Source of the DNA: a virus
Length of the DNA: 36,457 nt
Strand: one strand, 5' to 3'
Virus record (IMG/VR): IMGVR_UViG_3300045988_175898
Under the pieces are notes generated by a model that saw only the letters and a list, made by a program, of their open reading frames with translations, was not told the DNA's origin and searched no databases. This document shows positions 1 to 36,457 of this stretch, piece by piece. A program made the translations under genes and the position numbers. Positions within the stretch are counted from its first letter, which is position 1, and each line of letters starts with the position of its first letter.

Positions 1-55
1 AGAGAAAAAACAGTTACGGGAGAGAGAAAAAACAGTTACGGGAGAGAGAAAAAAC
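1..55. repeat. terminal redundancy: nt 1-55 identical to nt 36403-36457 (overlap of a circular contig)
   Basis: Direct comparison of both window ends. The unique length is 36402 nt. Confidence 0.9.
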
Positions 56-75
56 TACCTCCCGTGACTGAAAAA
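1..75. repeat. 22-nt tandem repeat AGAGAAAAAACAGTTACGGGAG (copies at 1-22 and 23-44, partial at 45-55) with an inverted copy of its 3' part
   Basis: A6 tracts at 5-10, 27-32 and 49-54, plus an A5 tract at 71-75, give a 22-nt phasing. CAGTTACGGGAG (33-44) pairs with CTCCCGTGACTG (59-70) in 12 bp with one G-T. Confidence 0.85.
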
Positions 76-95
76 TCCCTCCCCCTATGTGGTAG

Positions 96-230
96 GGTTT
101 TGAGTTTTAAGGTTATGAGGTTATAATGTCACCTCTGCTTGCCCAAACTCTTAAAGGTTACTTTATAACCTCATAACCTCAAAACTCAAAACTCAAAACT
201 TTATAAACTTAAAACTATATCCCCACCATC
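96..230. repeat. IPE-1: intergenic palindromic element, T-type core in forward orientation, variant arms
   Basis: Core ACCTCTGCTTGCCCAAACTCTTAAAGG at 131-157. The arms are GTTTTGAGTTTTAAGGTTATGAGGTTATAA and TTATAACCTCATAACCTCAAAACTCAAAAC. They differ from the other copies but remain mutually complementary. Confidence 0.85.
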
Positions 231-530
231 ATGACAACACTCACACTCCTGCCCCTCGGCCTGCTTGCCCTCTGCCTCGCCACCGCCCTGGGCTACCAAT
301 ACGGCTGCCGCCGCACAAAGGCACAAGCCAGCGACGAACTGCGCCGCGCCACAAGCAACACACGCCTCACCGCCTACGACGAAGGCTACACCCGGGGCTA
401 CGACGACGGACACAAAGCTGGAAAAGATGAAGGCTTCAGCGACGGCCGACGCTACGAAGCCGCCACACACCACAACCAGCAAGTAATAGAGGCCGAAATA
501 GCACGACACCTCAAACACCCACGCCAATGA
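231..530 (+). CDS. hypothetical protein with N-terminal hydrophobic helix
   Basis: 99-aa ORF with N-terminus MTTLTLLPLGLLALCLATALG. It begins just after IPE-1, and its stop overlaps the next start (ATGA). Confidence 0.5.
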   Translation: MTTLTLLPLGLLALCLATALGYQYGCRRTKAQASDELRRATSNTRLTAYDEGYTRGYDDGHKAGKDEGFSDGRRYEAATHHNQQVIEAEIARHLKHPRQ

Positions 531-778: not shown

Positions 779-932
779 GCGAGGAGTTGAAAAGTTGAGG
801 AGTTGAAAAGTTAAGAAGTCGCTTTTAAGAGTTGGGCAAGCAGAGGTAACCTCTTAACTTTTCAACTCTTCAACTTTTCAACTTGACATTCCCCTTAACT
901 TTTCAACTCTTAAACTTATAAACTTAAAAATC
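779..932. repeat. IPE-2: T-type core in REVERSE orientation
   Basis: CTTTTAAGAGTTGGGCAAGCAGAGGT at 822-847 is the reverse complement of the canonical core. Arms are GAGTTGAAAAGTT x2 and AACTTTTCAAC x3, with TTGACATTCC at 883-892. Confidence 0.9.
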
Positions 933-2631: not shown

Positions 2632-2758
2632 GTAAAAGTTGAAAAGTTTAGGAGTTGAAAAGTTTAGAGGTTACCTCTGCGAGTTCAACCTCTAAAACAT
2701 TCCTCTTAACTCTTAAACTTTTCAACTCCTCAACTTTAATTTTCCCCCCTCCCCACAC
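2632..2758. repeat. IPE-3: G-type core, forward
   Basis: ACCTCTGCGAGTTCAACCTCTAAAAC at 2673-2698, with the palindrome AGAGGTTACCTCT at the arm/core junction. ACATTCCTCTTAAC follows the core. Confidence 0.9.
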
Positions 2759-4926: not shown

Positions 4927-4957
4927 TTTGTTAATAAGCATATTATTATTATCTTTG
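4927..4957 (+). promoter_or_regulatory. Bacteroidota-type promoter TTTG-N19-TATCTTTG
   Basis: TTTG at 4927-4930 and TATCTTTG at 4950-4957, in an AT-rich island. Confidence 0.6.
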
Positions 4958-5851: not shown

Positions 5852-6988
5852 ATGCCACGCACTTACCACATCGACATCGACTCCTACATTGGCTACCCCA
5901 TAAGCAAGGGGTACATAAAGAGCAAGCTGCAGCCCATGAAGGGCAAGCCCTGCAACGTGCGCGTCAACTCCTACGGGGGCGACGTGCAGACGGCCATCGA
6001 CATCAGACAACAATTCATTGACCACGGACAGGTCACCGCCTACATCATAGGCATGACGGCCAGCGCGGCCACCATACTGGCCATGGGTGCGCGCAAGGTG
6101 GTGATGAGCCGCTACGCGCTGATGCTTGTGCACCCCTGTTCGGCCGCCGTGAGCACTTGGGGCTACTATAACAAGGAGGAACTTGCCAAGGCCATTGAGG
6201 GGCTGCGCAAGGCTCAGACCGACCTCAAGACGCTCGACCGCGTGGTGGCCTCGATATATGCCGCCAAGGTGGGCAACGGCAATGTCGACAGCATGGCGGC
6301 CCTCATGCATGAGGCGCGATGGATAGGTGCCGAGGAGGCGCTGCGCCTTGGCCTCATTGACGAGATTGACCCCGACGAAGAGCAGCCCGACCCCGCCAAG
6401 GAGCCCATGACCGACGCACAGCGCGAGCACATTGTGGCATGCGGGCTGCCTGTGCCAACTTTCGGCATGGCGGCTGGAAGCATGGCGGCCGAAAGCACTG
6501 AGGCTGGAAGCACTGAGGGCACTGCCGCCGCCACCATCACCACCACAGCCGAACAGCAAATGCGTAAGTCGATAGGCGAGGCGGTGCGCGATTTTTTTGA
6601 AACCCTTTTTGCGCGCGCCGCCAAGCCATCTTGCACCGCCAAGCCGCAGGGCGCGGCCGCTGCCACCACCGATGACAAGCCACATAACACTAACACCCCC
6701 ATAATGAACACACAAACTCTCACCCCCGCCACCCTGTGCGCCAAGCTCGGCGTGGCACACATCACCGCCACCGACGACAAGGTGACATTCACCACCGAGC
6801 AGATTGACGCGCTCGAAAAGGTGATCAAGGCTCTGGACGATGAAAAGAATGAGGCCGAAGCCAAACTCAACGCCACCGACGGCGACACTACAAACTCTGC
6901 CAAGCCAAGCACCGAGGCCGACGAAGGCACAGCACTGCCGGGTGCCGAGGCATGCGACTTTTACCGCAAGTACGGCTCCCTCATTTAA
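5852..6988 (+). CDS. ClpP/S14-like prohead protease with C-terminal scaffold-like region
   Basis: 378 aa. VRVNSYGGDVQTAIDIRQQFIDH...GMTASAATILAMGA...LMLVH fits the ClpP-type Ser/His arrangement. The C-terminal half is Ala/Thr/Glu-rich with a predicted coiled segment. Confidence 0.75.
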   Translation: MPRTYHIDIDSYIGYPISKGYIKSKLQPMKGKPCNVRVNSYGGDVQTAIDIRQQFIDHGQVTAYIIGMTASAATILAMGARKVVMSRYALMLVHPCSAAVSTWGYYNKEELAKAIEGLRKAQTDLKTLDRVVASIYAAKVGNGNVDSMAALMHEARWIGAEEALRLGLIDEIDPDEEQPDPAKEPMTDAQREHIVACGLPVPTFGMAAGSMAAESTEAGSTEGTAAATITTTAEQQMRKSIGEAVRDFFETLFARAAKPSCTAKPQGAAAATTDDKPHNTNTPIMNTQTLTPATLCAKLGVAHITATDDKVTFTTEQIDALEKVIKALDDEKNEAEAKLNATDGDTTNSAKPSTEADEGTALPGAEACDFYRKYGSLI

Positions 6989-7033
6989 CCAACTCATCAA
7001 CTCTTAAACTCTTAAACTTCTAAACTCTACACA

Positions 7034-7999
7034 ATGGCAAAAACTATCACCACCCTCGAGGCACTGCAGAAGAGTGCCACCCGCTACGAGAAGGAACTCC
7101 TCATCATGCCGGCCACATCAGCCGGTGCCACGCTGCAGCACATGACGGGCATGCCCGGCCTGCTTGGCAACGTGGTGCTCGGCCAGCTTGACGGCGATGC
7201 CGAACTTGGCCCGTACAAGAGCACACGCTCGGACGACGGCAACTTTACCATCACCCCGCGCGAACTTGAACTTTTCCTTGGCAACTGTGCCTACGGCTTC
7301 GACCCCAACGATGTGTGGGGCACCATCTACGGCTCGCTTGTGGCCCAAGGCGAGTCGCTCAAGACGGTGGACGTGAACAAGTACATTCTCATGTTCGTGG
7401 CCGGCAAACTTGGCCGCAAGCTCAACATGGCCATCTGGGGCGCAAAGCGCAACGCCGATGGCGACACCACGAAGGACTTGTTTAACGGTTTCGACACCAT
7501 CACCGCCACCGAGGCCACTGCGGGCAACATTGCCGCAGGCAAGGGCAACTACATGGAGCTGACGGCCGCCATCGACAAGACTAACGCCATCGACACATTC
7601 AACGCCATCTACGCCGCCGCCGATGACGAGCTGCAGGGCCAGAAGGCTAAAATATATGTGTCGAAGGACATTTACAACGCCTACAACCAGAACTACCAGT
7701 TGTTGCACGGCTCGCTGCCTTACAACACGGAGTTCAAGAAAACCTTCCTCGAGGGTTCGGACAACCTGTGGGAGTTCTGCCCGCTGGCATCAAAGAAGGG
7801 CTCGCAGTACATACACATTGCCCCGCAGAGCAACATGGTGTACGGCTTCGGCGCGGGCGACAACCCCGGCGAGCGTCTGGCCATCGAAAAGTACTCGTCG
7901 TGGAAACTCACCCTCGAGGCTGCCATAGCCTTCGGCGTGCAGTTCCGAAGCCTTAGCCCCGAAATGCTCATGGTGGCCAAACTCAAGGGCGGAGAATGA
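7034..7999 (+). CDS. major capsid protein (candidate, HK97-fold by position)
   Basis: 321 aa, immediately downstream of the prohead protease. I recognise no motif with certainty. Confidence 0.6.
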   Translation: MAKTITTLEALQKSATRYEKELLIMPATSAGATLQHMTGMPGLLGNVVLGQLDGDAELGPYKSTRSDDGNFTITPRELELFLGNCAYGFDPNDVWGTIYGSLVAQGESLKTVDVNKYILMFVAGKLGRKLNMAIWGAKRNADGDTTKDLFNGFDTITATEATAGNIAAGKGNYMELTAAIDKTNAIDTFNAIYAAADDELQGQKAKIYVSKDIYNAYNQNYQLLHGSLPYNTEFKKTFLEGSDNLWEFCPLASKKGSQYIHIAPQSNMVYGFGAGDNPGERLAIEKYSSWKLTLEAAIAFGVQFRSLSPEMLMVAKLKGGE

Positions 8000-8159
8000 G
8001 TTGAAAAGTTGAAAAGTTAAGAGGTCACCTCTGCGAGTTCGACCTCTAAAACTGACCTCTTAACTCTTAAACTCTTAAACTTTTCAACTTAAATCCCTCC
8101 AAGCCTGACATTCCTCTTAACTTCTCAACTCTTAAACTCTTAAACTTAAAAAACTCCCC
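8000..8159. repeat. IPE-4: G-type core, forward
   Basis: ACCTCTGCGAGTTCGACCTCTAAAAC at 8027-8052, palindrome AGAGGTCACCTCT, and CTGACATTCCTCTTAAC at 8105-8121. Confidence 0.9.
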
Positions 8160-8780: not shown

Positions 8781-8990
8781 CCGCAGGCGGCTAAGTTGAA
8801 AAGTTTATGAGTTGAAAAGTTAAGAGGTTGCTTTAAGAGTTGAAAAGTTTATGAGTTGAAAAGTTAAGAAGTTACATCTGCTTGTCCAACTCTTAAAACC
8901 GATCGCTTAACGCTTCAACTCCTAAACTTTTCAACTCTTAAAGCGACCTCTTAACTTTTCAACTCCTAAACTTATCAACTTTTTAGTACT
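8781..8990. repeat. IPE-5: compound element (truncated reverse core remnant plus full T-type forward core)
   Basis: GTTGCTTTAAGAGTTG near 8827-8842 resembles a truncated reversed core. The full core ACATCTGCTTGTCCAACTCTTAAAAC lies at 8874-8899. There are two nested sets of arms. Confidence 0.8.
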
Positions 8991-9530
8991 ATGCTCGACC
9001 ACGAATTCACCAAACAACTGCAGGCCTACCTTGCCAAGCCGTCAGATGAACGCGACGTGAGGCAAGGGGCCATGCTCCTGTTGCGCATCAACTCCAACCG
9101 CTACCTCTACGCCTGTGCCTGTGCCGCCCCCGCGCGCTACGCCGACACCATAGCCTACGAACTGAACAAGTACCTGCGCATACGCCTCGACGGCCTCACG
9201 CGCCACGACGTGGCCACCATGGAGCAAGAGGCCCTGCCGCGCATTGAGCAATCACTGCAACAGGGCGCGCCCGTCATCAGCACCGACGCCGACCACCCCA
9301 AGGGCCAGTACCGCGGCCGCCGCCCCGACCACGACAAACTGCCCGACCACATAAAGAAGCTGTACGACGATAACGGCGAGCTTTACTTCAAGATGAAGCA
9401 AACCTTTGAAACGCTCAAGACCATGGCCGACAAGGAGCCGTGCGACCGCTACGAACTGCTCAAACTGCTCAAAAAGGCTGATGAGAGGTACAGGCTGAAT
9501 TGGGAGGCATACGACGAATTTAGAAGTTGA
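8991..9530 (+). CDS. hypothetical protein
   Basis: 179-aa ORF flanked by IPEs. Confidence 0.5.
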   Translation: MLDHEFTKQLQAYLAKPSDERDVRQGAMLLLRINSNRYLYACACAAPARYADTIAYELNKYLRIRLDGLTRHDVATMEQEALPRIEQSLQQGAPVISTDADHPKGQYRGRRPDHDKLPDHIKKLYDDNGELYFKMKQTFETLKTMADKEPCDRYELLKLLKKADERYRLNWEAYDEFRS

Positions 9531-9676
9531 AAAGTTTATGAGTTTAAGAGTTTAGAGGACGCCTCTGCGAGTTCAACTCTAAAAAGCGACCTCATAAACT
9601 TATCAACTTCTAAACTTCTCAACTTATAAAACCGTCCTCTTAACTTCTAAACTTTTCAACTTCTCAACTTATTAAA
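9531..9676. repeat. IPE-6: G-type core variant, forward
   Basis: GCCTCTGCGAGTTCAACTCTAAAAAG at 9561-9586. Confidence 0.85.
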
Positions 9677-10653: not shown

Positions 10654-10769
10654 TGAGTTGAAAAGTTTAAGAGTTGAAAAGTTAAGAAGTTACCTCTGCT
10701 TGCTCAACTCTTAAAGGCGTTCTCCTAACTTTTCAACTCATCAACTTATAAACTTTAATCCCCTCCCCC
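10654..10769. repeat. IPE-7: T-type core, forward
   Basis: ACCTCTGCTTGCTCAACTCTTAAAGG at 10692-10717. Confidence 0.9.
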
Positions 10770-11180
10770 ATGATCACCCTCAAAGTAAGAGGCTTGAAAA
10801 ACTTCAAGCTCGACAAAAAGCAGTACTTCCCCCAGGTGGCCCCCACCACCCCCATCGGCCTTAACGACGTGGCCTCACAAATTGAGAAACAAAGCACCGT
10901 GAGCCTGGCCGACATCAAGGGCGTGCTCGACGCCCTGCAAGAAGTGGTGCTCGAAGCCATGGCCGACGGCTACTCCGTGCGCCTGGGCGACCTTGGCTCG
11001 TTCCGACTCACATGCACCACCACCCATGGCGAGGACGACCCAAAACTCGTCACCGCCAAGCAGGTAAAAAAGCTGCGTGTGCGCTTCACTCCTTCGGGTG
11101 CCATGCAGCAAAAGCTCGGCACGGCCGATGCACGCACCCGCAGCGTGACGTTCAGCAAGATAGCCACACCCGAGGCATAG
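10770..11180 (+). CDS. HU-like DNA-binding protein (Bacteroidota HU_HIG type)
   Basis: 136 aa. The segment QIEKQSTVSLADIKGVLDALQEVVLEAMADGYSVRLGDLGSFRLTC...VRFTPSGAMQ follows the pattern of Bacteroidales HU-domain proteins as I recall it. Confidence 0.65.
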   Translation: MITLKVRGLKNFKLDKKQYFPQVAPTTPIGLNDVASQIEKQSTVSLADIKGVLDALQEVVLEAMADGYSVRLGDLGSFRLTCTTTHGEDDPKLVTAKQVKKLRVRFTPSGAMQQKLGTADARTRSVTFSKIATPEA

Positions 11181-11181
11181 C

Positions 11182-11252
11182 AAAAACAGTTGTGCCGAAG
11201 AGAAAAAACAGTTGTGCCTGCGAGAAAAAACGCGCAGGCACAACCGAAAAAA
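11182..11252. repeat. 22-nt-phased A-tract / CAGTT repeat locus with a 12-bp hairpin (paralog of nt 1-75)
   Basis: AAAAACAGTTGTGCC occurs at 11182-11196 and 11204-11218. GTTGTGCCTGCG (11211-11222) pairs with CGCAGGCACAAC (11233-11244). A-tracts lie near 11182, 11203, 11224 and 11247. Confidence 0.85.
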
Positions 11253-11265
11253 GCGCGTAGTGAAG

Positions 11266-11400
11266 CCATGAAGTTGCCCAAGCTCTAATGGGGGCGACGC
11301 GTCCCGCGCCGGGAAAAAGATGCAGCCATGGCTTCACACCCTCCCGCCCATCACCGACGCGGGACGCGTCGCCCCCATTAGAGCTTGGGCAACTTCATGG
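11266..11400. repeat. perfect 43-bp inverted repeat with a 49-nt spacer
   Basis: 11266-11308 is the exact reverse complement of 11358-11400. A competing pairing exists between GTGAAGCCATG (11260-11270) and CATGGCTTCAC (11327-11337). Confidence 0.9.
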
Positions 11401-11457
11401 TCTCTAAAAGCGACCTCTTAACTTCTAAATTTTTCAACTCATCAACTCAAAACCCCC
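11401..11457. repeat. IPE-8: core-less right arm only
   Basis: TCTCTAAAAGCGACCTCTTAACTTCTAAATTTTTCAACTCATCAAC. There is no ACCTCTGC core and no left arm. Confidence 0.7.
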
Positions 11458-12834
11458 ATGAACATATCCCCCCTCCTCTCCACGGCCACCACCATACGCT
11501 ACGAGAAGGCACGCTACGCCAACACCGCCGAACGTGTGGGCTCACTGCTCTACAACATGTGCCAGGCCATGGCCGACACCGATGCCACCGCATCGGCCGC
11601 CAACACCATAGCGCAGGGCCTGAACCAGTGGCTCACCACCCACGACAACCTGACCACCCTCGACGCCCTGAACGCCGCGCTCGACGCCATGAACGTGGAC
11701 TCCCCCCAGGGCCTGCACTGCTTCAAGTGCCTCGGCATACCGGTGCTCACCTACTTCGGCGTGCTCGTGAAGGACACCAAGCGCTATGTGCAGATAGCGG
11801 TGGGGGCTTTCACCCTCAACTCGCATGGCACCGCGCTGGCCTCGATCAACGACACAGCATCAACGCGCAACGTGATAGTGCGCTACTTTAACGGCACCAA
11901 GTGGCAGGCATGGCAGCCCCTGCAGCCGCAAAAGCAAACGTCGTACTCGGGCTTCAACGGCAACTATGTATACTCCGAAGGCACGACCGACAACACGCGC
12001 ACCATACTGAGCAGCAAAATGTGGACTTATACACACACCGACCGCAACTTGTTTTTACGCTTCAAGCACTGGGGCGCAGAGAACAACACTGATACAAGCC
12101 AATACAGTCAAGTGCTGCTATGCTATTTGGTGAACAGGAACCAAGACGGGCTGATGGATAAGTATGTGTTTGCCCGCATTCTGAATAACAATCTTGCAGA
12201 AGGGCTGAGCACTACGGACAGCGTAATTGTTAACTACACAAACTTTGCCGATAGTGGCAACAAGCAACTTGTACTCACCAAGGCCACAAGCGCCAAGGCG
12301 GGCGTCATGACGGCCGCACAGGCCACGCAGCTGAGTGCGCTGGACGAAGGCATAAAGCAAGTGAGCCTGAACGGCGGCAAAAAGTGGGAGTTCCGCACCC
12401 TCGGGGGCGAAAAGGTGTTGGAAACGCTCTCCGACGTAATGGGCGAGGAGGTAAGCCACTCCGACTTCGAGAACGCCGAACTCGCCACCTACATGGAGGG
12501 CAACCCCATCGAGGTGTACCAAACGCAGGGTGCCTACGGTGTGCCCGCACAAAAGTACATGATATGGTTCGGCCACCGCATCAAGGGCGCCAGCGGCGCC
12601 AGCGGCACACTGCAGCGCTACGACTTCAAGACCATTGCCGGCATGGAGCCGCTCGCGTTGTACAACAGAGTGACACAGGGCACCGCGATGCACTTCTGGA
12701 CTCTGACCAATGGCCATGCCATTGCCTACAAAGGCTCGGGGGGCCTCACGGCGCAACTGAGAACCGCGCCCTACATCATGAACACCGACGACAAGGCATT
12801 GCTCGAAAAGTTGAGAGGGCAGTTGAAAAGTTGA
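11458..12834 (+). CDS. hypothetical virion-module protein (function unassigned)
   Basis: 458-aa ORF between IPE-8 and IPE-9. Confidence 0.5.
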   Translation: MNISPLLSTATTIRYEKARYANTAERVGSLLYNMCQAMADTDATASAANTIAQGLNQWLTTHDNLTTLDALNAALDAMNVDSPQGLHCFKCLGIPVLTYFGVLVKDTKRYVQIAVGAFTLNSHGTALASINDTASTRNVIVRYFNGTKWQAWQPLQPQKQTSYSGFNGNYVYSEGTTDNTRTILSSKMWTYTHTDRNLFLRFKHWGAENNTDTSQYSQVLLCYLVNRNQDGLMDKYVFARILNNNLAEGLSTTDSVIVNYTNFADSGNKQLVLTKATSAKAGVMTAAQATQLSALDEGIKQVSLNGGKKWEFRTLGGEKVLETLSDVMGEEVSHSDFENAELATYMEGNPIEVYQTQGAYGVPAQKYMIWFGHRIKGASGASGTLQRYDFKTIAGMEPLALYNRVTQGTAMHFWTLTNGHAIAYKGSGGLTAQLRTAPYIMNTDDKALLEKLRGQLKS

Positions 12835-12935
12835 AAAGTTGAAAAGTTAAGAGGTAACCTCTGCTTGCCCCAACTCTTAAAACCGACATCTTAACTCTTA
12901 AACTCTTAAACTCATAACCTTAAAAAGCCTCCTCT
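12835..12935. repeat. IPE-9: T-type core, forward
   Basis: ACCTCTGCTTGCCCCAACTCTTAAAAC at 12857-12883, with palindrome AGAGGTAACCTCT. Confidence 0.9.
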
Positions 12936-13187: not shown

Positions 13188-13362
13188 AAAGTTGAGTGGA
13201 AAGTTGAAAAGTTGAAGAGTTGAAAAGTTAAGAAGTCACCTCTGCTTGTCCAACCACTGAAACCGACCTCCCAACTCTTAAACTCTTAAACTTTTCAACT
13301 CTCAAAACCGACCTCATAAACTTCTCAACTTTTCAACTCATCAACTTAAACCCCCGACCAAC
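13188..13362. repeat. IPE-10: T-type core variant, forward
   Basis: ACCTCTGCTTGTCCAACCACTGAAAC at 13238-13263. The left arm carries four GTTGAAAAGTT-like units. Confidence 0.9.
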
Positions 13363-14267: not shown

Positions 14268-14437
14268 TGGGGGCGTTTGGGTGAAAGTTGATAAGTTTAG
14301 AAGTTGAAAAGTTAAGAAGATACCTCTGCTTGCTCAACTCTTAAAAGCGACCTCTTAACTTTTCAACTCATCAACTCCTCAACTCTTAAAAGCGCCCTCT
14401 TAACTTTTCAACTCCTCAACTTATAAACTTAAAACTC
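14268..14437. repeat. IPE-11: T-type core, forward
   Basis: ACCTCTGCTTGCTCAACTCTTAAAAG at 14322-14347. There are two tandem right arms of the form (AAAAGCG[A/C]CCTCTTAACTTTTCAACTC). Confidence 0.9.
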
Positions 14438-15520: not shown

Positions 15521-15693
15521 GTTGAAAAGTTTAGGAGTTGAAAGGTTAAGAGGATACCTCTGCGAGTTCAACTCTTAAAAGCGACCGCTTAACTCTTAAA
15601 CTCTTCAACTTCTCAACTTAAAATTCCTCCTCGCCAGACATTCCTCTTAACTCTTCAACTTCTAAACTTTTCAACTTAAAACCCCCTCCCCCT
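15521..15693. repeat. IPE-12: G-type core, forward
   Basis: ACCTCTGCGAGTTCAACTCTTAAAAG at 15556-15581, and CAGACATTCCTCTTAAC at 15635-15651. Confidence 0.9.
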
Positions 15694-18539: not shown

Positions 18540-18703
18540 TAGTTGAAAAGTTGAAGAGTTGAAAAGTTAAGAGGTTACCTCTGCGAGTTCAACCGCTAAA
18601 ACATTCCTCTTAACTTCTAAACTCCTAAACTTTTCAACTCTAAAAAACCGCCCTCTTAACTCTTCAACTCATAAACTTCTAAACTTAAAAACTCCCCCCT
18701 CCC
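18540..18703. repeat. IPE-13: G-type core, forward
   Basis: ACCTCTGCGAGTTCAACCGCTAAAAC at 18577-18602, followed by ACATTCCTCTTAAC. Confidence 0.9.
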
Positions 18704-19489
18704 ATGAAGAAAACAGACAAGCTAAACGACTACGTCGGCTTCGTAGAGAAATTCAAGCCCAAGCGCACCACCGATGACTGCTACACCCCGCCTGCCGTGT
18801 ACGAGGCCGTAAAGGGCTGGGCTATAAAAAAATTCAACATCGCCCCCGACCGCCCCATAGTGCGCCCCTTCTACCCCGGCGGCGACTTTGAGCATTACGA
18901 CTACCCGCAGGGCTGCGTGGTGATAGACAACCCGCCGTTCAGCATTTTGGCCAAGATTAAAAGGTTCTACCTCGAGCGCGGTATTCACTTTTTCCTGTTC
19001 GCCCCATCGCTCACCTTATTCTCGAGCTGCATCGAAGAGATTACCCACATACTCACCGGCAGCACTATCACCTACGAGAACGGCACCAAGGTTAACACGG
19101 CTTTCGTGACCAACCTGCCAAGCCCCAACGTGCTCATGACCGCCCCCGACCTGGCTCAGCTCATCAAGGAGGCCGACGCACAAAGGCCCAAGGCAGAGTT
19201 ACCGGTGCTCGACTTCCCGGCAAACGTCATCACCTCCGCGAGACTCAACAATATAGCCTCGCTCGTGAGCTTTGAGGTGCCGCGCACCGAGGCCCGATTT
19301 GTGCGGACAATAGGCGCGGCGCGCAAAGTCCTATATGGAGGCGGGCTGCTCATATCCTCAGCCAAAGCCGCCAAAGCCGCCAAAGCCGCCAAAGCCGCCA
19401 AAGCCGCCAAAGCCGCCAAATACGAGCTTACCCCCGAAGAGCAAGCCATCGTGGCCGATTTGGACAAGCAGAGGGGAATTTTAAGTTGA
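18704..19489 (+). CDS. orphan N6-adenine DNA methyltransferase (EcoRI-methylase-like) with C-terminal (AKA)n tail
   Basis: 261 aa. It has DDCYTPP near the N-terminus and VVIDNPPFS (motif IV, NPPF). No adjacent restriction endonuclease gene is present. Confidence 0.55.
   Translation: MKKTDKLNDYVGFVEKFKPKRTTDDCYTPPAVYEAVKGWAIKKFNIAPDRPIVRPFYPGGDFEHYDYPQGCVVIDNPPFSILAKIKRFYLERGIHFFLFAPSLTLFSSCIEEITHILTGSTITYENGTKVNTAFVTNLPSPNVLMTAPDLAQLIKEADAQRPKAELPVLDFPANVITSARLNNIASLVSFEVPRTEARFVRTIGAARKVLYGGGLLISSAKAAKAAKAAKAAKAAKAAKYELTPEEQAIVADLDKQRGILS
19361..19420 (+). repeat. in-frame 9-nt tandem repeat GCCAAAGCC x6.7 encoding (AKA)6AK
   Basis: Perfect copies read directly from the sequence, inside CDS 18704..19489. 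Confidence 0.95.
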
Positions 19490-19730
19490 TGAGTTTATAA
19501 GTTGAAAAGTTTATGGGGGAACCTTTAAGTTGATGAGTTTATGAGTTGAGAAGTTAAGAATATACCTCTGCGAGTTCAACTCTTAAAAGCGACCGCTCAA
19601 CTCTTCAACTTATCAACTCATCAACTTTACTATCCTCTTAACTCTTAAACTCCTCAACTTATCAACTCCCCCCTCCAAGCTTGACATTCCTCTTAACTCC
19701 TCAACTTATAAACTTTTCAACTCTAAAAGT
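19490..19730. repeat. IPE-14: G-type core, forward; longest copy
   Basis: ACCTCTGCGAGTTCAACTCTTAAAAG at 19564-19589. The arms use GTTGATGAGTTTAT variants. TTGACATTCCTCTTAAC lies at 19681-19697. Confidence 0.9.
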
Positions 19731-20685: not shown

Positions 20686-20720
20686 TTTGTTGCGCGGTAG
20701 TGATTAAAGCCATATCTTTG
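20686..20720 (+). promoter_or_regulatory. Bacteroidota-type promoter TTTG-N23-TATCTTTG
   Basis: TTTG at 20686-20689 and TATCTTTG at 20713-20720. The -7 region TATCTTTGCA is identical to those at 4950 and 27341. Confidence 0.6.
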
Positions 20721-27316: not shown

Positions 27317-27348
27317 TTTGGCAAATACGAATTATTGTAGTATCTTTG
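27317..27348 (+). promoter_or_regulatory. Bacteroidota-type promoter TTTG-N20-TATCTTTG
   Basis: TTTG at 27317-27320 and TATCTTTG at 27341-27348. Confidence 0.6.
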
Positions 27349-30874: not shown

Positions 30875-30907
30875 TTTGTTGTTATTAAATTGCATTTGCT
30901 ATATTTG
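30875..30907 (+). promoter_or_regulatory. rightward early promoter TTTG-N21-TATATTTG
   Basis: TTTG at 30875-30878 and TATATTTG at 30900-30907. ACATAAC repeats lie at 30913-30919 and 30925-30931, with an inverted GTTATGT at 30963-30969 just downstream. These are operator candidates. Confidence 0.5.
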
Positions 30908-32659: not shown

Positions 32660-32817
32660 TTTAAGTTTGGTTCCAAGTTGATGAGTTTATGAGTTGAAAA
32701 GTTTATGTGGTCACCTCTGCAAGTTCGAACTCTTAAAAGCGACCTCTTAACTCTTCAACTCCTAAACTTATAAACTTAAAAAAACTCCAAACTCCTACTC
32801 TAACTCCAAAAGACCAT
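32660..32817. repeat. IPE-15: G-type core variant, forward
   Basis: ACCTCTGCAAGTTCGAACTCTTAAAAG at 32713-32739. Confidence 0.9.
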
Positions 32818-35727: not shown

Positions 35728-35961
35728 AAGATTCAAGTTGAAGAGTTTAGGAGTTGAAAAGTCAAGATACGAGTTGAAAAGTTCAAGAGTTGAAAAGCTA
35801 AGAGGTTACCTCTGCTTGTCCAACTCTTAAAAGCGACCGCTGAACTCTTCAACTCATCAACTTTTCAACTTGACATTCCAACTTTTCAACTTGACATTCC
35901 TCTTAACTTTTCAACTCATCAACTTTTCAACTTATAAACTCCTAAACTTATAAACTTAAAA
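35728..35961. repeat. IPE-16: T-type core, forward
   Basis: ACCTCTGCTTGTCCAACTCTTAAAAG at 35808-35833. TTGACATTCC occurs twice (35870-35879 and 35891-35900) and CTTATAAACT occurs twice. Confidence 0.9.
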
Positions 35962-36390
35962 ATGATGCAAAAAGAACACCTCGTACCCCCGGGCAGCGTG
36001 CCCGACGCCACACGCATACTTACGAATGTGGCCTACCTCATGGGCGATGTGACCAACACCCTCATGATGGACGCACAAAGCCGCGTGGAGCGGCTCGGCT
36101 TCGACCTCAAGCACGACTGCAAGCAACGCTGGCGCATGGCCATGCGACAAACCGAACTGGCCAAAAGAGCCTGGGCCAGCTTTGCCCGCGAAATGTACAC
36201 CCTCGAAGATGCCGCACAGGCCTGCGACGACAGCGACTACTTTGCCGACCTAATCCTCCTCATTGCCGACCGCGTGGGCGACAACCACCGCCGGCAACAA
36301 ATGGTGCGCAACATGATTAAACGCCTCAAAAGCGAAGCACACATCTACGACGAACTCAACCAAGGACACCGCCCCGGCGAAGACTTTTAA
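35962..36390 (+). CDS. hypothetical protein
   Basis: 142-aa ORF starting right after the CTTATAAACTTAAAA box. Confidence 0.5.
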   Translation: MMQKEHLVPPGSVPDATRILTNVAYLMGDVTNTLMMDAQSRVERLGFDLKHDCKQRWRMAMRQTELAKRAWASFAREMYTLEDAAQACDDSDYFADLILLIADRVGDNHRRQQMVRNMIKRLKSEAHIYDELNQGHRPGEDF

Positions 36391-36457
36391 CCACATAGGC
36401 GAAGAGAAAAAACAGTTACGGGAGAGAGAAAAAACAGTTACGGGAGAGAGAAAAAAC

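Follow-up and report, generated by a model that had tools for sequence, protein, structure and literature searches.

Does a palindrome in which both arms have changed and still pair reveal selection on its stem? The question is raised by IPE-1, an intergenic element whose palindrome spans positions 95-194 of IMG/VR virus record IMGVR_UViG_3300045988_175898. This stretch of 36,457 nucleotides is called the window below. An earlier note on this DNA had proposed that IPE-1 keeps a conserved core and replaces both arms by a different, complementary sequence, as expected if the stem is selected as a hairpin or cruciform. Comparison with related genomes instead indicates that IPE-1 acquired or retained its arms as a whole cassette, by recombination among co-circulating genomes.

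The arms of IPE-1 are a variant of a common octamer array

The core of IPE-1 (131-157) was read directly from the sequence and matches the consensus of 14 other intergenic elements in the window, 13 of which carry it in the same orientation and one in inverted orientation (784-884). Consistent with the earlier description of near-perfect reverse complements over about 30 nt, the two arms are complementary at 30 of 32 positions. Folding of positions 96-230 as RNA and as single-stranded DNA, a check that had been suggested, bears out the stem. In the predicted fold, 96-134 is paired with 155-193 in a 36-bp stem with three 1-nt interruptions per strand, closed by a 20-nt loop. As RNA the fold has an energy of -44.8 kcal/mol (z = -10.6; none of 200 shuffled sequences folded as stably) and as single-stranded DNA of -28.5 kcal/mol (z = -8.9). 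Within the window, the arm motif GGTTATRAGGTTAT occurs at 0 mismatches only in the two arms of IPE-1, and in this scope the arm sequence is indeed not used elsewhere. The duplex formed by the two IPE-1 arms has -40.8 kcal/mol, compared to about -12 to -15 kcal/mol for duplexes with the arms of the 14 other elements.

The arms of IPE-1 are nevertheless a variant of the common array and not an unrelated sequence. They share the 8-nt GTT/AAC phase with all other arms, and their dialect, called type 2, has an A instead of a T two bases before AAC. In all elements the arms are arrays of 8-nt units, where the left arm reads GTTNNNNN and lacks C, and the right arm reads NNNNNAAC and essentially lacks G. 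The window contains 27 right-type and 18 left-type arrays, with approximately none expected in shuffled sequence, and the modal array has 4 units. Only 6 of the 832 bases in the right arrays are G, which is avoided even at variable positions. Type 1 (TYTTMAAC) is used 43 times, type 2 (TTATAACC / TCATAACC) only in the two arms of IPE-1. A milder version of the change had also been described, with GTTGATGA / TCATCAAC units. It is real in the element at 19,483-19,730, whereas the element at 32,675 lacks the TCATCAAC partner, and TCATCAAC units are common across right arms in general.

CCTCTGC is exact in 14 of 15 core copies, and the core is far better conserved than the arm units. Copies anchored by this motif start at 840 (inverted), 2674, 8028, 8875, 9562, 10693, 12858, 13239, 14323, 15557, 18578, 19565, 32714 and 35809. 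Nine elements have one more right module than left modules, and the linker before every extra right module is the right half of the core, AACTCTTAAAAGCGAC. Because this half doubles as the linker, the unique part of the core is only about 17 nt long (GTNACCTCTGC plus six bases). Left arms are always upstream of the right arm and never downstream. In 12 of the 15 elements, the distance from the upstream stop codon to the start of the left arm is between -12 and +20 nt, and the element therefore occupies the gap between stop and start. Right arrays are always on the side of the gene and finish with AACTTAAAA, from which a short C-rich stretch leads to the ATG. Across the elements, arms measure 24-76 nt, loops 17-35 nt and predicted stems 27-79 bp.

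Whole cassettes are exchanged between related phage genomes

The window is a complete-looking phage contig of 36.4 kb whose ends share a repeat (1-55 = 36403-36457). It has a GC content of about 56% and carries nearly every gene on the plus strand. The encoded proteins include a head protease, a tape-measure protein, an integrase and a large terminase (TerL) that shares 80% identity with that of an Alloprevotella metagenome-assembled genome (MAG) contig and 58% with that of a Bacteroides congonensis prophage, with 58-61% identity across prophage-like regions of B. congonensis and another Alloprevotella MAG. On the basis of these identities the host is a member of the Bacteroidales. The clade to which the window belongs is one of temperate Bacteroidales (Alloprevotella-type) siphophages. 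A megablast search of 50,697 GenBank phage records with the window and two type-2 loci gave no match, so that there was no annotated relative to compare.

The joint replacement of both arms had been interpreted as covariation, and the homologous junctions do not support this. In the sister contigs 174060 and 172432, the IPE-1 junction carries ordinary type-1 elements. In the sister contig 178118, it carries the core with a type-2 right arm and the left arm is missing. Contig 174060 is the closest sister, with flanking genes 94-98% identical to those of the window, and it has type-2 cassettes at the junctions of IPE5 and IPE6, where the window has type 1. Because the closest sister bears type-2 cassettes at these junctions instead, the arm swap of IPE-1 is attributed to cassette exchange. 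As the exchange is reciprocal, the swap counts as one event at most, and a single event in which both arms changed cannot tell selection from shared origin. The match between the arms would reflect a palindrome built from two copies of one dialect, not compensation pair by pair.

Similar plasticity is seen at other sites. Module number varies at most junctions while the flanking genes stay 90-100% identical. The orientation of the core flips between sister genomes at the orthologous IPE2 and IPE4 junctions (window 784-884; L018 6494, L006 425, L013 2464), a pattern that DNA inversion mediated by the arms would be expected to produce. Among the sister genomes compared, none had an empty orthologous junction. 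These comparisons show that whole cassettes are exchanged, duplicated and flipped between genomes.

The idea that the arms of IPE-1 are a private compensatory replacement also fails outside the window. The type-2 16-mer GGTTATGAGGTTATAA is standard in the wider clade and present in 96 IMG/VR stretches. At least one full array (at least 3 units) was found in 58 of 95 new type-2 loci, and at least two such arrays in 45 of the 95. The type-2 contigs tested by homology are distant relatives, with identities of about 50% for the terminase and about 39% for the product of the gene at 7034-7999. Since these distant contigs and an intermediate group (about 80% identity) show type 2 only, and type 1 is dominant only in the immediate group of the window, type 2 is the general dialect and type 1 a local expansion. 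At the junction orthologous to IPE-9, the intermediate group has type-2 arms around an unrelated loop. IPE-9 was also considered as the orthologue of a type-2 element in the distant phages and rejected, because the gene order differs there. No comparable palindromes were found in distant array-less relatives (L020-L022).

Pairing of the arms is frequent and not obligatory

If the stem itself, as an RNA hairpin or a DNA cruciform, were the selected unit, IPE-1 would represent a compensatory replacement of both arms around a functional core. We consider this explanation unlikely, although several observations agree with it in addition to the long and stable stem of IPE-1. Among complete elements, 125 strand readings are type 1 in both arms, 38 are type 2 in both arms and none is mixed, where the detector sees GTT/AAC-phased arrays only. 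The only clear hybrid, with a type-2 left and a type-1 right arm (contig 174060), has a decayed right arm. In contig 157159, matched palindromes are found in type 2, type 3 (TCGTTAAC) and type 4 (CACATTYB), each with -39 to -44 kcal/mol. Palindromy is thus recurrent, with dialect-matched arms in all complete GTT/AAC-phased elements and in three dialects of contig 157159. This part of the original argument stands, since the palindromes recur with unrelated arm sequences; compensatory swapping in situ and matching specific to single type-1 elements were not observed.

Within type 1, left and right arms show no element-specific matching. In 14 type-1 elements, in-register identity at variable positions was 0.681 for the own arm versus 0.704 for the arms of other elements (permutation p = 0.89), and the corresponding duplex energies were -26.3 versus -27.8 kcal/mol (p = 0.92). 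The complementarity of type-1 arms is about 81% because both arms are arrays of one consensus unit. Among transition mismatches, A.C is found 33 times and G.U 12 times, which is the opposite of the signature of a selected plus-strand RNA stem. Hairpin energies are spread from -18 to -102 kcal/mol across the elements, and the sister contig 178118 retains core and right arm without the left arm. About 75% of type-2 sites elsewhere are solitary, with no inverted partner within 130 nt. Contig 157159 additionally contains two composites of a type-1-like left array and a non-complementary type-4 right array, with -5 and -7 kcal/mol. For this test of unpaired left arrays, homology-oriented junctions of contig 157159 were used; strand assignment from open reading frames (ORFs) alone was too noisy for an automated census. 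Given the solitary arrays and the non-complementary composites, pairing is frequent and not obligatory. Together with the reciprocal exchange of cassettes between near-identical genomes, these data make IPE-1 weak evidence for hairpin selection. The recurrent palindromy could result either from selection or from the mode in which left arms originate, for example by inverted duplication of an adjacent array.

Other arrangements of arrays and palindromes were seen in the relatives. Contig 157159 (L061, reverse strand; about 80% protein identity) has at least four array dialects in one genome, namely TTATAACC, TCGTTAAC, CACATTYB and GTTTAATA-type left arrays, and the homologues of genes 7034 and 8160 flank a long, GC-rich palindrome there. 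In an Alloprevotella MAG contig (L019; 760-1000 and 2920-3190), C-free 7-nt GTAATAA/GTAAGAA arrays are followed by a short GC-rich hairpin and by G-free CTAACC / TTATAACC arrays as far as the ATG. Although not complementary, the two halves, one rich in purines and the other in pyrimidines, are retained there.

Gene-proximal arrays precede gene starts, probably inside operons

The position of arrays relative to genes was examined with 122 distinct solitary arrays. An ATG-started ORF of at least 60 codons was located within 70 nt in the sense direction for 93 of them and in the antisense direction for 10, at a median distance of 17 nt. Other contigs have the type-2 right array of IPE-1 on its own before ATGs. 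Of the 39 genes listed for the window, 17 carry a right array before their start. Base composition is similarly biased at 13 array-less gene starts, some of which overlap the upstream ORF: G accounts for 8.9% of positions -25 to -1, compared to a background of 24.5% (p < 1e-4). Because array-less starts, including those overlapping an ORF, are also G-poor and rich in C and A, the constraint seems to act on the mRNA rather than on a promoter. CA-rich, nearly G-free tracts (e.g. ACACACACCACCCACCC) are present at -25 to -1 of the starts at 1397, 1678, 3268, 5852, 10243, 20749 and 25293, even within the upstream coding sequence. The block of tail genes at 20.7-27.2 kb has no octamer arrays.

Bacteroidetes sigma-A promoters were searched by the criterion of a -33 TTTG and a -7 TAnnTTTG with a spacing of 17-23 nt (TTTG-N17-23-TAnnTTTG). 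Four matches were obtained, all on the plus strand (4927-4957, 20686-20720, 27317-27348 and 30875-30907), versus 0.78 expected by chance, and none of 100 shuffles reached four. They suggest the outline of an operon layout for the phage. None of the four canonical matches falls inside an IPE, and the IPEs are therefore read as intra-operonic. Lying downstream of the predicted promoters at 4927 and 30875, between genes that run in the same direction, they would be part of common transcripts. The possibility that the elements are promoters was rejected, since the Bacteroidetes-type motifs fall outside them and a sigma-70 scan was at chance. Also, right arrays cannot hold the Bacteroidetes motif because they lack G. 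Intrinsic termination by the hairpins was rejected as well: right arms are followed by AACTTAAAA or C-rich sequence, and without a U-tract the hairpin is no canonical terminator. A terminator scan gave 27 hits versus 29.7 expected, and the only plus-strand flags near elements were at 842-854 (IPE-2) and 83-97 (upstream of IPE-1). A canonical plus-strand intrinsic terminator with an 11-bp GC-rich stem and TTTTT is found at 2134-2161, in the 388-nt gap before the gene at 2474.

Proposed role of the arrays and alternative explanations

The ribosomes of Bacteroidia do without Shine-Dalgarno pairing. What modulates initiation there is the structure of the mRNA and the bases preceding the start, in whose vicinity AUG is avoided (PMC6847099, PMC7797042). 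With moderate confidence, we propose that the gene-proximal G-free arrays are Shine-Dalgarno-independent translation leaders within operons, that the inverted upstream copy adds an optional intercistronic hairpin and that IPE-1 received or retained its arms as a whole cassette. The basic unit would be the sense-strand, essentially G-free array, usually of four 8-nt units (NNNNNAAC), a median of 17 nt before the start codon. On the mRNA, it most likely forms an unstructured leader without a possible start codon and may serve as a landing pad for initiation, because G-free sequence can neither fold on itself via G-C or G-U pairs nor contain AUG, GUG or UUG. Many cassettes also contain an inverted copy of the array, beginning at the upstream stop codon or close to it, with a core of 17-35 nt between the two copies. 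In a polycistronic transcript, the two copies could pair into a hairpin of 27-80 bp. This hairpin probably acts as an RNase III-type processing site, as a stability or insulating structure, or as a coupler of termination to initiation, which is the weakest step of the proposal.

Several points weigh against the leader proposal. An unstructured leader alone does not account for the strict 8-nt period, the preferred array of four units or the discrete dialects, features that look more like repeated binding sites. Type-3 and type-4 units of contig 157159 hold one G each, so G-freeness is not universal. The core is given no specific role, despite its conservation relative to the arm units. IPE-3, 5, 7, 8 and 14 have equal numbers of left and right modules, where the hairpin would sequester the array and leave a free leader of about 11-42 nt. 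Matched palindromes in four dialects could still mean real selection for pairing. Finally, every functional step is inferred from sequence.

Two further explanations were considered, and both appear improbable. The first holds that the arrays are operators at the DNA level, in which a phage or host DNA-binding protein binds the 8-bp units cooperatively, direct and inverted arrays are different architectures and the dialect reflects protein specificity. The strict period, the modal four units and the discrete dialects fit such operators, as do the occurrence of arrays in both direct and inverted form and the flips of core orientation without loss of the element. On the other hand, the strong strand specificity relative to the downstream gene (93 versus 10), the avoidance of G even at variable positions and the location away from canonical promoters are not expected of operators; moreover, a single genome contains two dialects, and near-identical genomes exchange them. 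In Pfam and PHROGs scans of 25 further proteins, only generic helix-turn-helix (HTH) matches were obtained and no ribbon-helix-helix or array-specific regulator was recognised. The one small conserved protein examined (527-778) was rejected as a trans-acting factor, since it is also present in array-less relatives.

The second explanation regards the palindromes as selfish or mechanistic products. Left arms would be tolerated by-products of inverted duplication (template switching) or of a spread like that of miniature inverted-repeat transposable elements (MITEs), and only the right arrays would be functional. It is in keeping with the rapid gain, loss and inversion of modules between genomes with 90-100% identical flanking genes and with the existence of array-less relatives that have the same structural genes. 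The best own-arm matches are limited to a few elements (IPE-1 0.87, IPE-2 0.90) and the others match the family average, a pattern expected of duplications that differ in age. However, by-products would not be expected to start so regularly at the upstream stop codon, always upstream of the right arm, nor to enclose a conserved core. Even where pairing is impossible, left-type arrays are retained in other dialects. No empty sites and, without a systematic search, no target-site duplications were seen.

The leader proposal can be taken further, in a rather speculative way. The arrays could be an undescribed class of exchangeable, Shine-Dalgarno-independent initiation cassettes of Bacteroidota phages, read by the 30S subunit or by bS1 via their periodicity. 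The inverted copy at the stop codon might then tie initiation to upstream termination or to RNase III, and the dialects might prevent cross-pairing or recombination.

Comparison with known systems

The family as a whole looks undescribed. At gathering thresholds, no Rfam family matches the elements, and at E <= 1 the only models that the long hairpins matched, below threshold, were those of plant microRNA precursors. Full-text literature searches for the arm sequences and for similar repeats in Bacteroidales or Prevotella phages gave nothing relevant.

The nearest described phenomenon is the SAS/ESAS system (start-associated sequences and extended SAS) of Cluster K mycobacteriophages, to which the likeness is architectural only. 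SAS is a 13-bp start-associated motif, about half of the copies are extended by imperfect 17-bp inverted repeats with a 4-13-bp spacer, and its function is still unknown (PMC3203893). As in our elements, the motif lies in one orientation right before many phage starts, an imperfect inverted partner can be present upstream at a variable distance, the consensus differs between subclusters and a function related to translation is suspected (PMC3203893). There is, however, no sequence similarity, and SAS is a single motif in an organism that uses Shine-Dalgarno sequences. In contrast, the elements studied here have a four-fold 8-nt G-free array, longer arms, loops with a conserved core and several dialects per genome. 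They do not carry the SAS consensus or its 17-bp repeat with a 4-13-bp spacer, and share the one-orientation position upstream of starts.

Four other systems each appear to share some features with the elements and to differ in at least one defining property. RNase III sites of the T7 type are intercistronic hairpins, are not periodic repeats and are not known with the right half alone. Like the elements, they occur as extended, imperfect hairpins between neighbouring genes in long phage operons with a single direction of transcription. Such a hairpin would leave the upstream message with a protective stem at its 3′ end and release the initiation region downstream. The predicted stems of the elements likewise lie between genes that are probably co-transcribed and provide at least about 20 bp of double-stranded RNA with interruptions. 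The elements have no sequence or Rfam relation to T7 sites. REP/BIME, ERIC and the Neisseria Correia elements are chromosomal and insert in either orientation; MITEs have terminal inverted repeats and target duplications, and some interspersed palindromic repeats are RNase III substrates or modify mRNA stability. REP, ERIC and Correia elements resemble our family as numerous imperfect palindromes in transcribed intergenic DNA that have a central part in either orientation and are plastic between strains. Here, unlike in those families, the polarity of the arms is fixed relative to genes, the gap from stop to start is filled and the genomes are those of phages.

The omega leader of tobacco mosaic virus is a nearly G-free A/C/U leader with short direct repeats. 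It supports Shine-Dalgarno-independent translation in E. coli (PMC13577412). Both systems place nearly G-free repeats immediately before the AUG, and our arrays, like omega, would support initiation that does not involve Shine-Dalgarno pairing. In contrast to our arrays, omega belongs to a eukaryotic virus, is located at the 5′-end and not between cistrons and has no inverted partner, and there is no evidence of homology. The operators of ribbon-helix-helix regulators, such as MetJ met-boxes, ParG tetramer boxes and omega heptads, are cooperative arrays of 2-10 short units that repeat every 7-8 bp, directly or inverted. They lie at promoters and are read on duplex DNA, with no strand polarity. 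Our arrays resemble them in their short period and their direct or inverted layout. The arrays differ by being strand-specific, G-free and away from canonical promoters, and by the lack of a cognate protein recognised by Pfam or PHROGs.

Features of the window and additional observations

The coordinates of IPE-1, its neighbours and the other elements of the window are given in Table 1.

Table 1. IPE-1 and related elements in the 36,457-nt window.
Feature	Positions	Strand	Sequence and remarks
Upstream neighbour of IPE-1	1-94	+	Three 22-nt direct repeats AGAGAAAAAACAGTTACGGGAG, then hairpin with AGAAAAAAC loop, then CCCTATGTGGTAGGG; outside the palindrome; position conserved beside IPE-1
IPE-1, left (distal) arm	95-126	+	GGGTTTTGAGTTTTAAGGTTATGAGGTTATAA; type-2 octamers GTTTTGA / GTTTTAAG / GTTATGAG / GTTATAA; without C
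IPE-1, core region	127-162	+	Conserved part 131-157 = ACCTCTGCTTGCCCAAACTCTTAAAGG; only 135-154 unpaired in predicted fold
IPE-1, right (gene-proximal) arm	163-194	+	TTATAACCTCATAACCTCAAAACTCAAAACTC; type-2 G-free units TTATAACC / TCATAACC / TCAAAACT / CAAAACTC
Unpaired G-free leader from IPE-1 to ATG at 231	195-230	+	AAAACTTTATAAACTTAAAACTATATCCCCACCATC; 0 G in -40 to -1
Gene served by IPE-1	231-530	+	99 aa, function not assigned; downstream neighbour
IPE-2	779-932	+	Type-1 arms, inverted core, second right-arm module
IPE-3	2636-2758	+	Type 1
Solitary right-type array	6986-7033	+	Without core or left arm; directly upstream of gene at 7034
IPE-4	8000-8159	+	Type 1, two right modules
IPE-5	8781-8990	+	Nested double palindrome, 76-nt arms 92% complementary, -102 kcal/mol
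IPE-6	9526-9676	+	Type 1, two right modules
IPE-7	10654-10769	+	Type 1
Right-type module with AAAAGCGACC prefix	11402-11457	+	Upstream of gene at 11458; no octamer left arm before it
IPE-8	12822-12935	+	Type 1; weakest hairpin, -17.9 kcal/mol
IPE-9	13188-13362	+	Type 1, two right modules
IPE-10	14268-14437	+	Type 1, two right modules
IPE-11	15521-15693	+	Type 1, two right modules
IPE-12	18540-18703	+	Type 1, two right modules
IPE-13	19485-19730	+	Two left, three right modules; has GTTGATGA / TCATCAAC units
IPE-14	32675-32817	+	Type 1; GTTGATGA on left arm only, no TCATCAAC partner
IPE-15	35735-35961	+	Two left modules, long right array

The region upstream of IPE-1 belongs to a separate set of repeats. 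Tandem 22-nt repeats and hairpins with a conserved AGAAAAAAC loop are found in the window at 1-94, 36381-36457 and 11155-11253, and in relatives (L016 5700-5820, L017 5420-5550, L018 5640-5800). At the place corresponding to 1-94, the relatives keep the AGAAAAAAC loop with other stems. The window has CAGTTACGGGAG as its stem sequence, the copy at 11.2 kb has GTTGTGCCTGCG and the sister genomes have CATAGGGGGATAG; this difference around a conserved loop looks like real stem covariation. On the minus strand, the repeats read as a hairpin followed by a T-run, and they are located just upstream of IPE-1 in all four genomes. A role as a site of packaging or replication, or as antisense terminators, is conceivable.

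At 11270-11397, a GC-rich, near-perfect inverted repeat of 39 bp with a loop of about 50 nt is followed by a right-type module and the ATG at 11458. It is a different kind of palindrome in the place of the left arm. Just before IPE-13, inside the gene at 18704-19489, GCCAAAGCC is repeated seven times in tandem (19361-19423) and encodes an Ala-Lys-Ala repeat. An adjacent pair of DUF4160 and DUF2442 genes (1397-1642 and 1678-2085), the second with an HTH_3 tail, is located in the early-gene region among the repeat elements.

Implications

For the analysis of repeat families, the case of IPE-1 means that one change of both arms does not equal covariation until the exchange of whole cassettes has been excluded. 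In genome annotation, the elements are useful as markers of gene starts and operon structure for an abundant, poorly annotated group of human-associated phages. Bacteroidia and their phages choose start codons without Shine-Dalgarno pairing, and this clade puts a stereotyped, G-free, periodic cassette before many of its genes and exchanges it freely between genomes. If the arrays are initiation elements, they would represent a compact natural part that is suited to reporter and toeprint assays and could be used for gene expression in Bacteroides or Prevotella.

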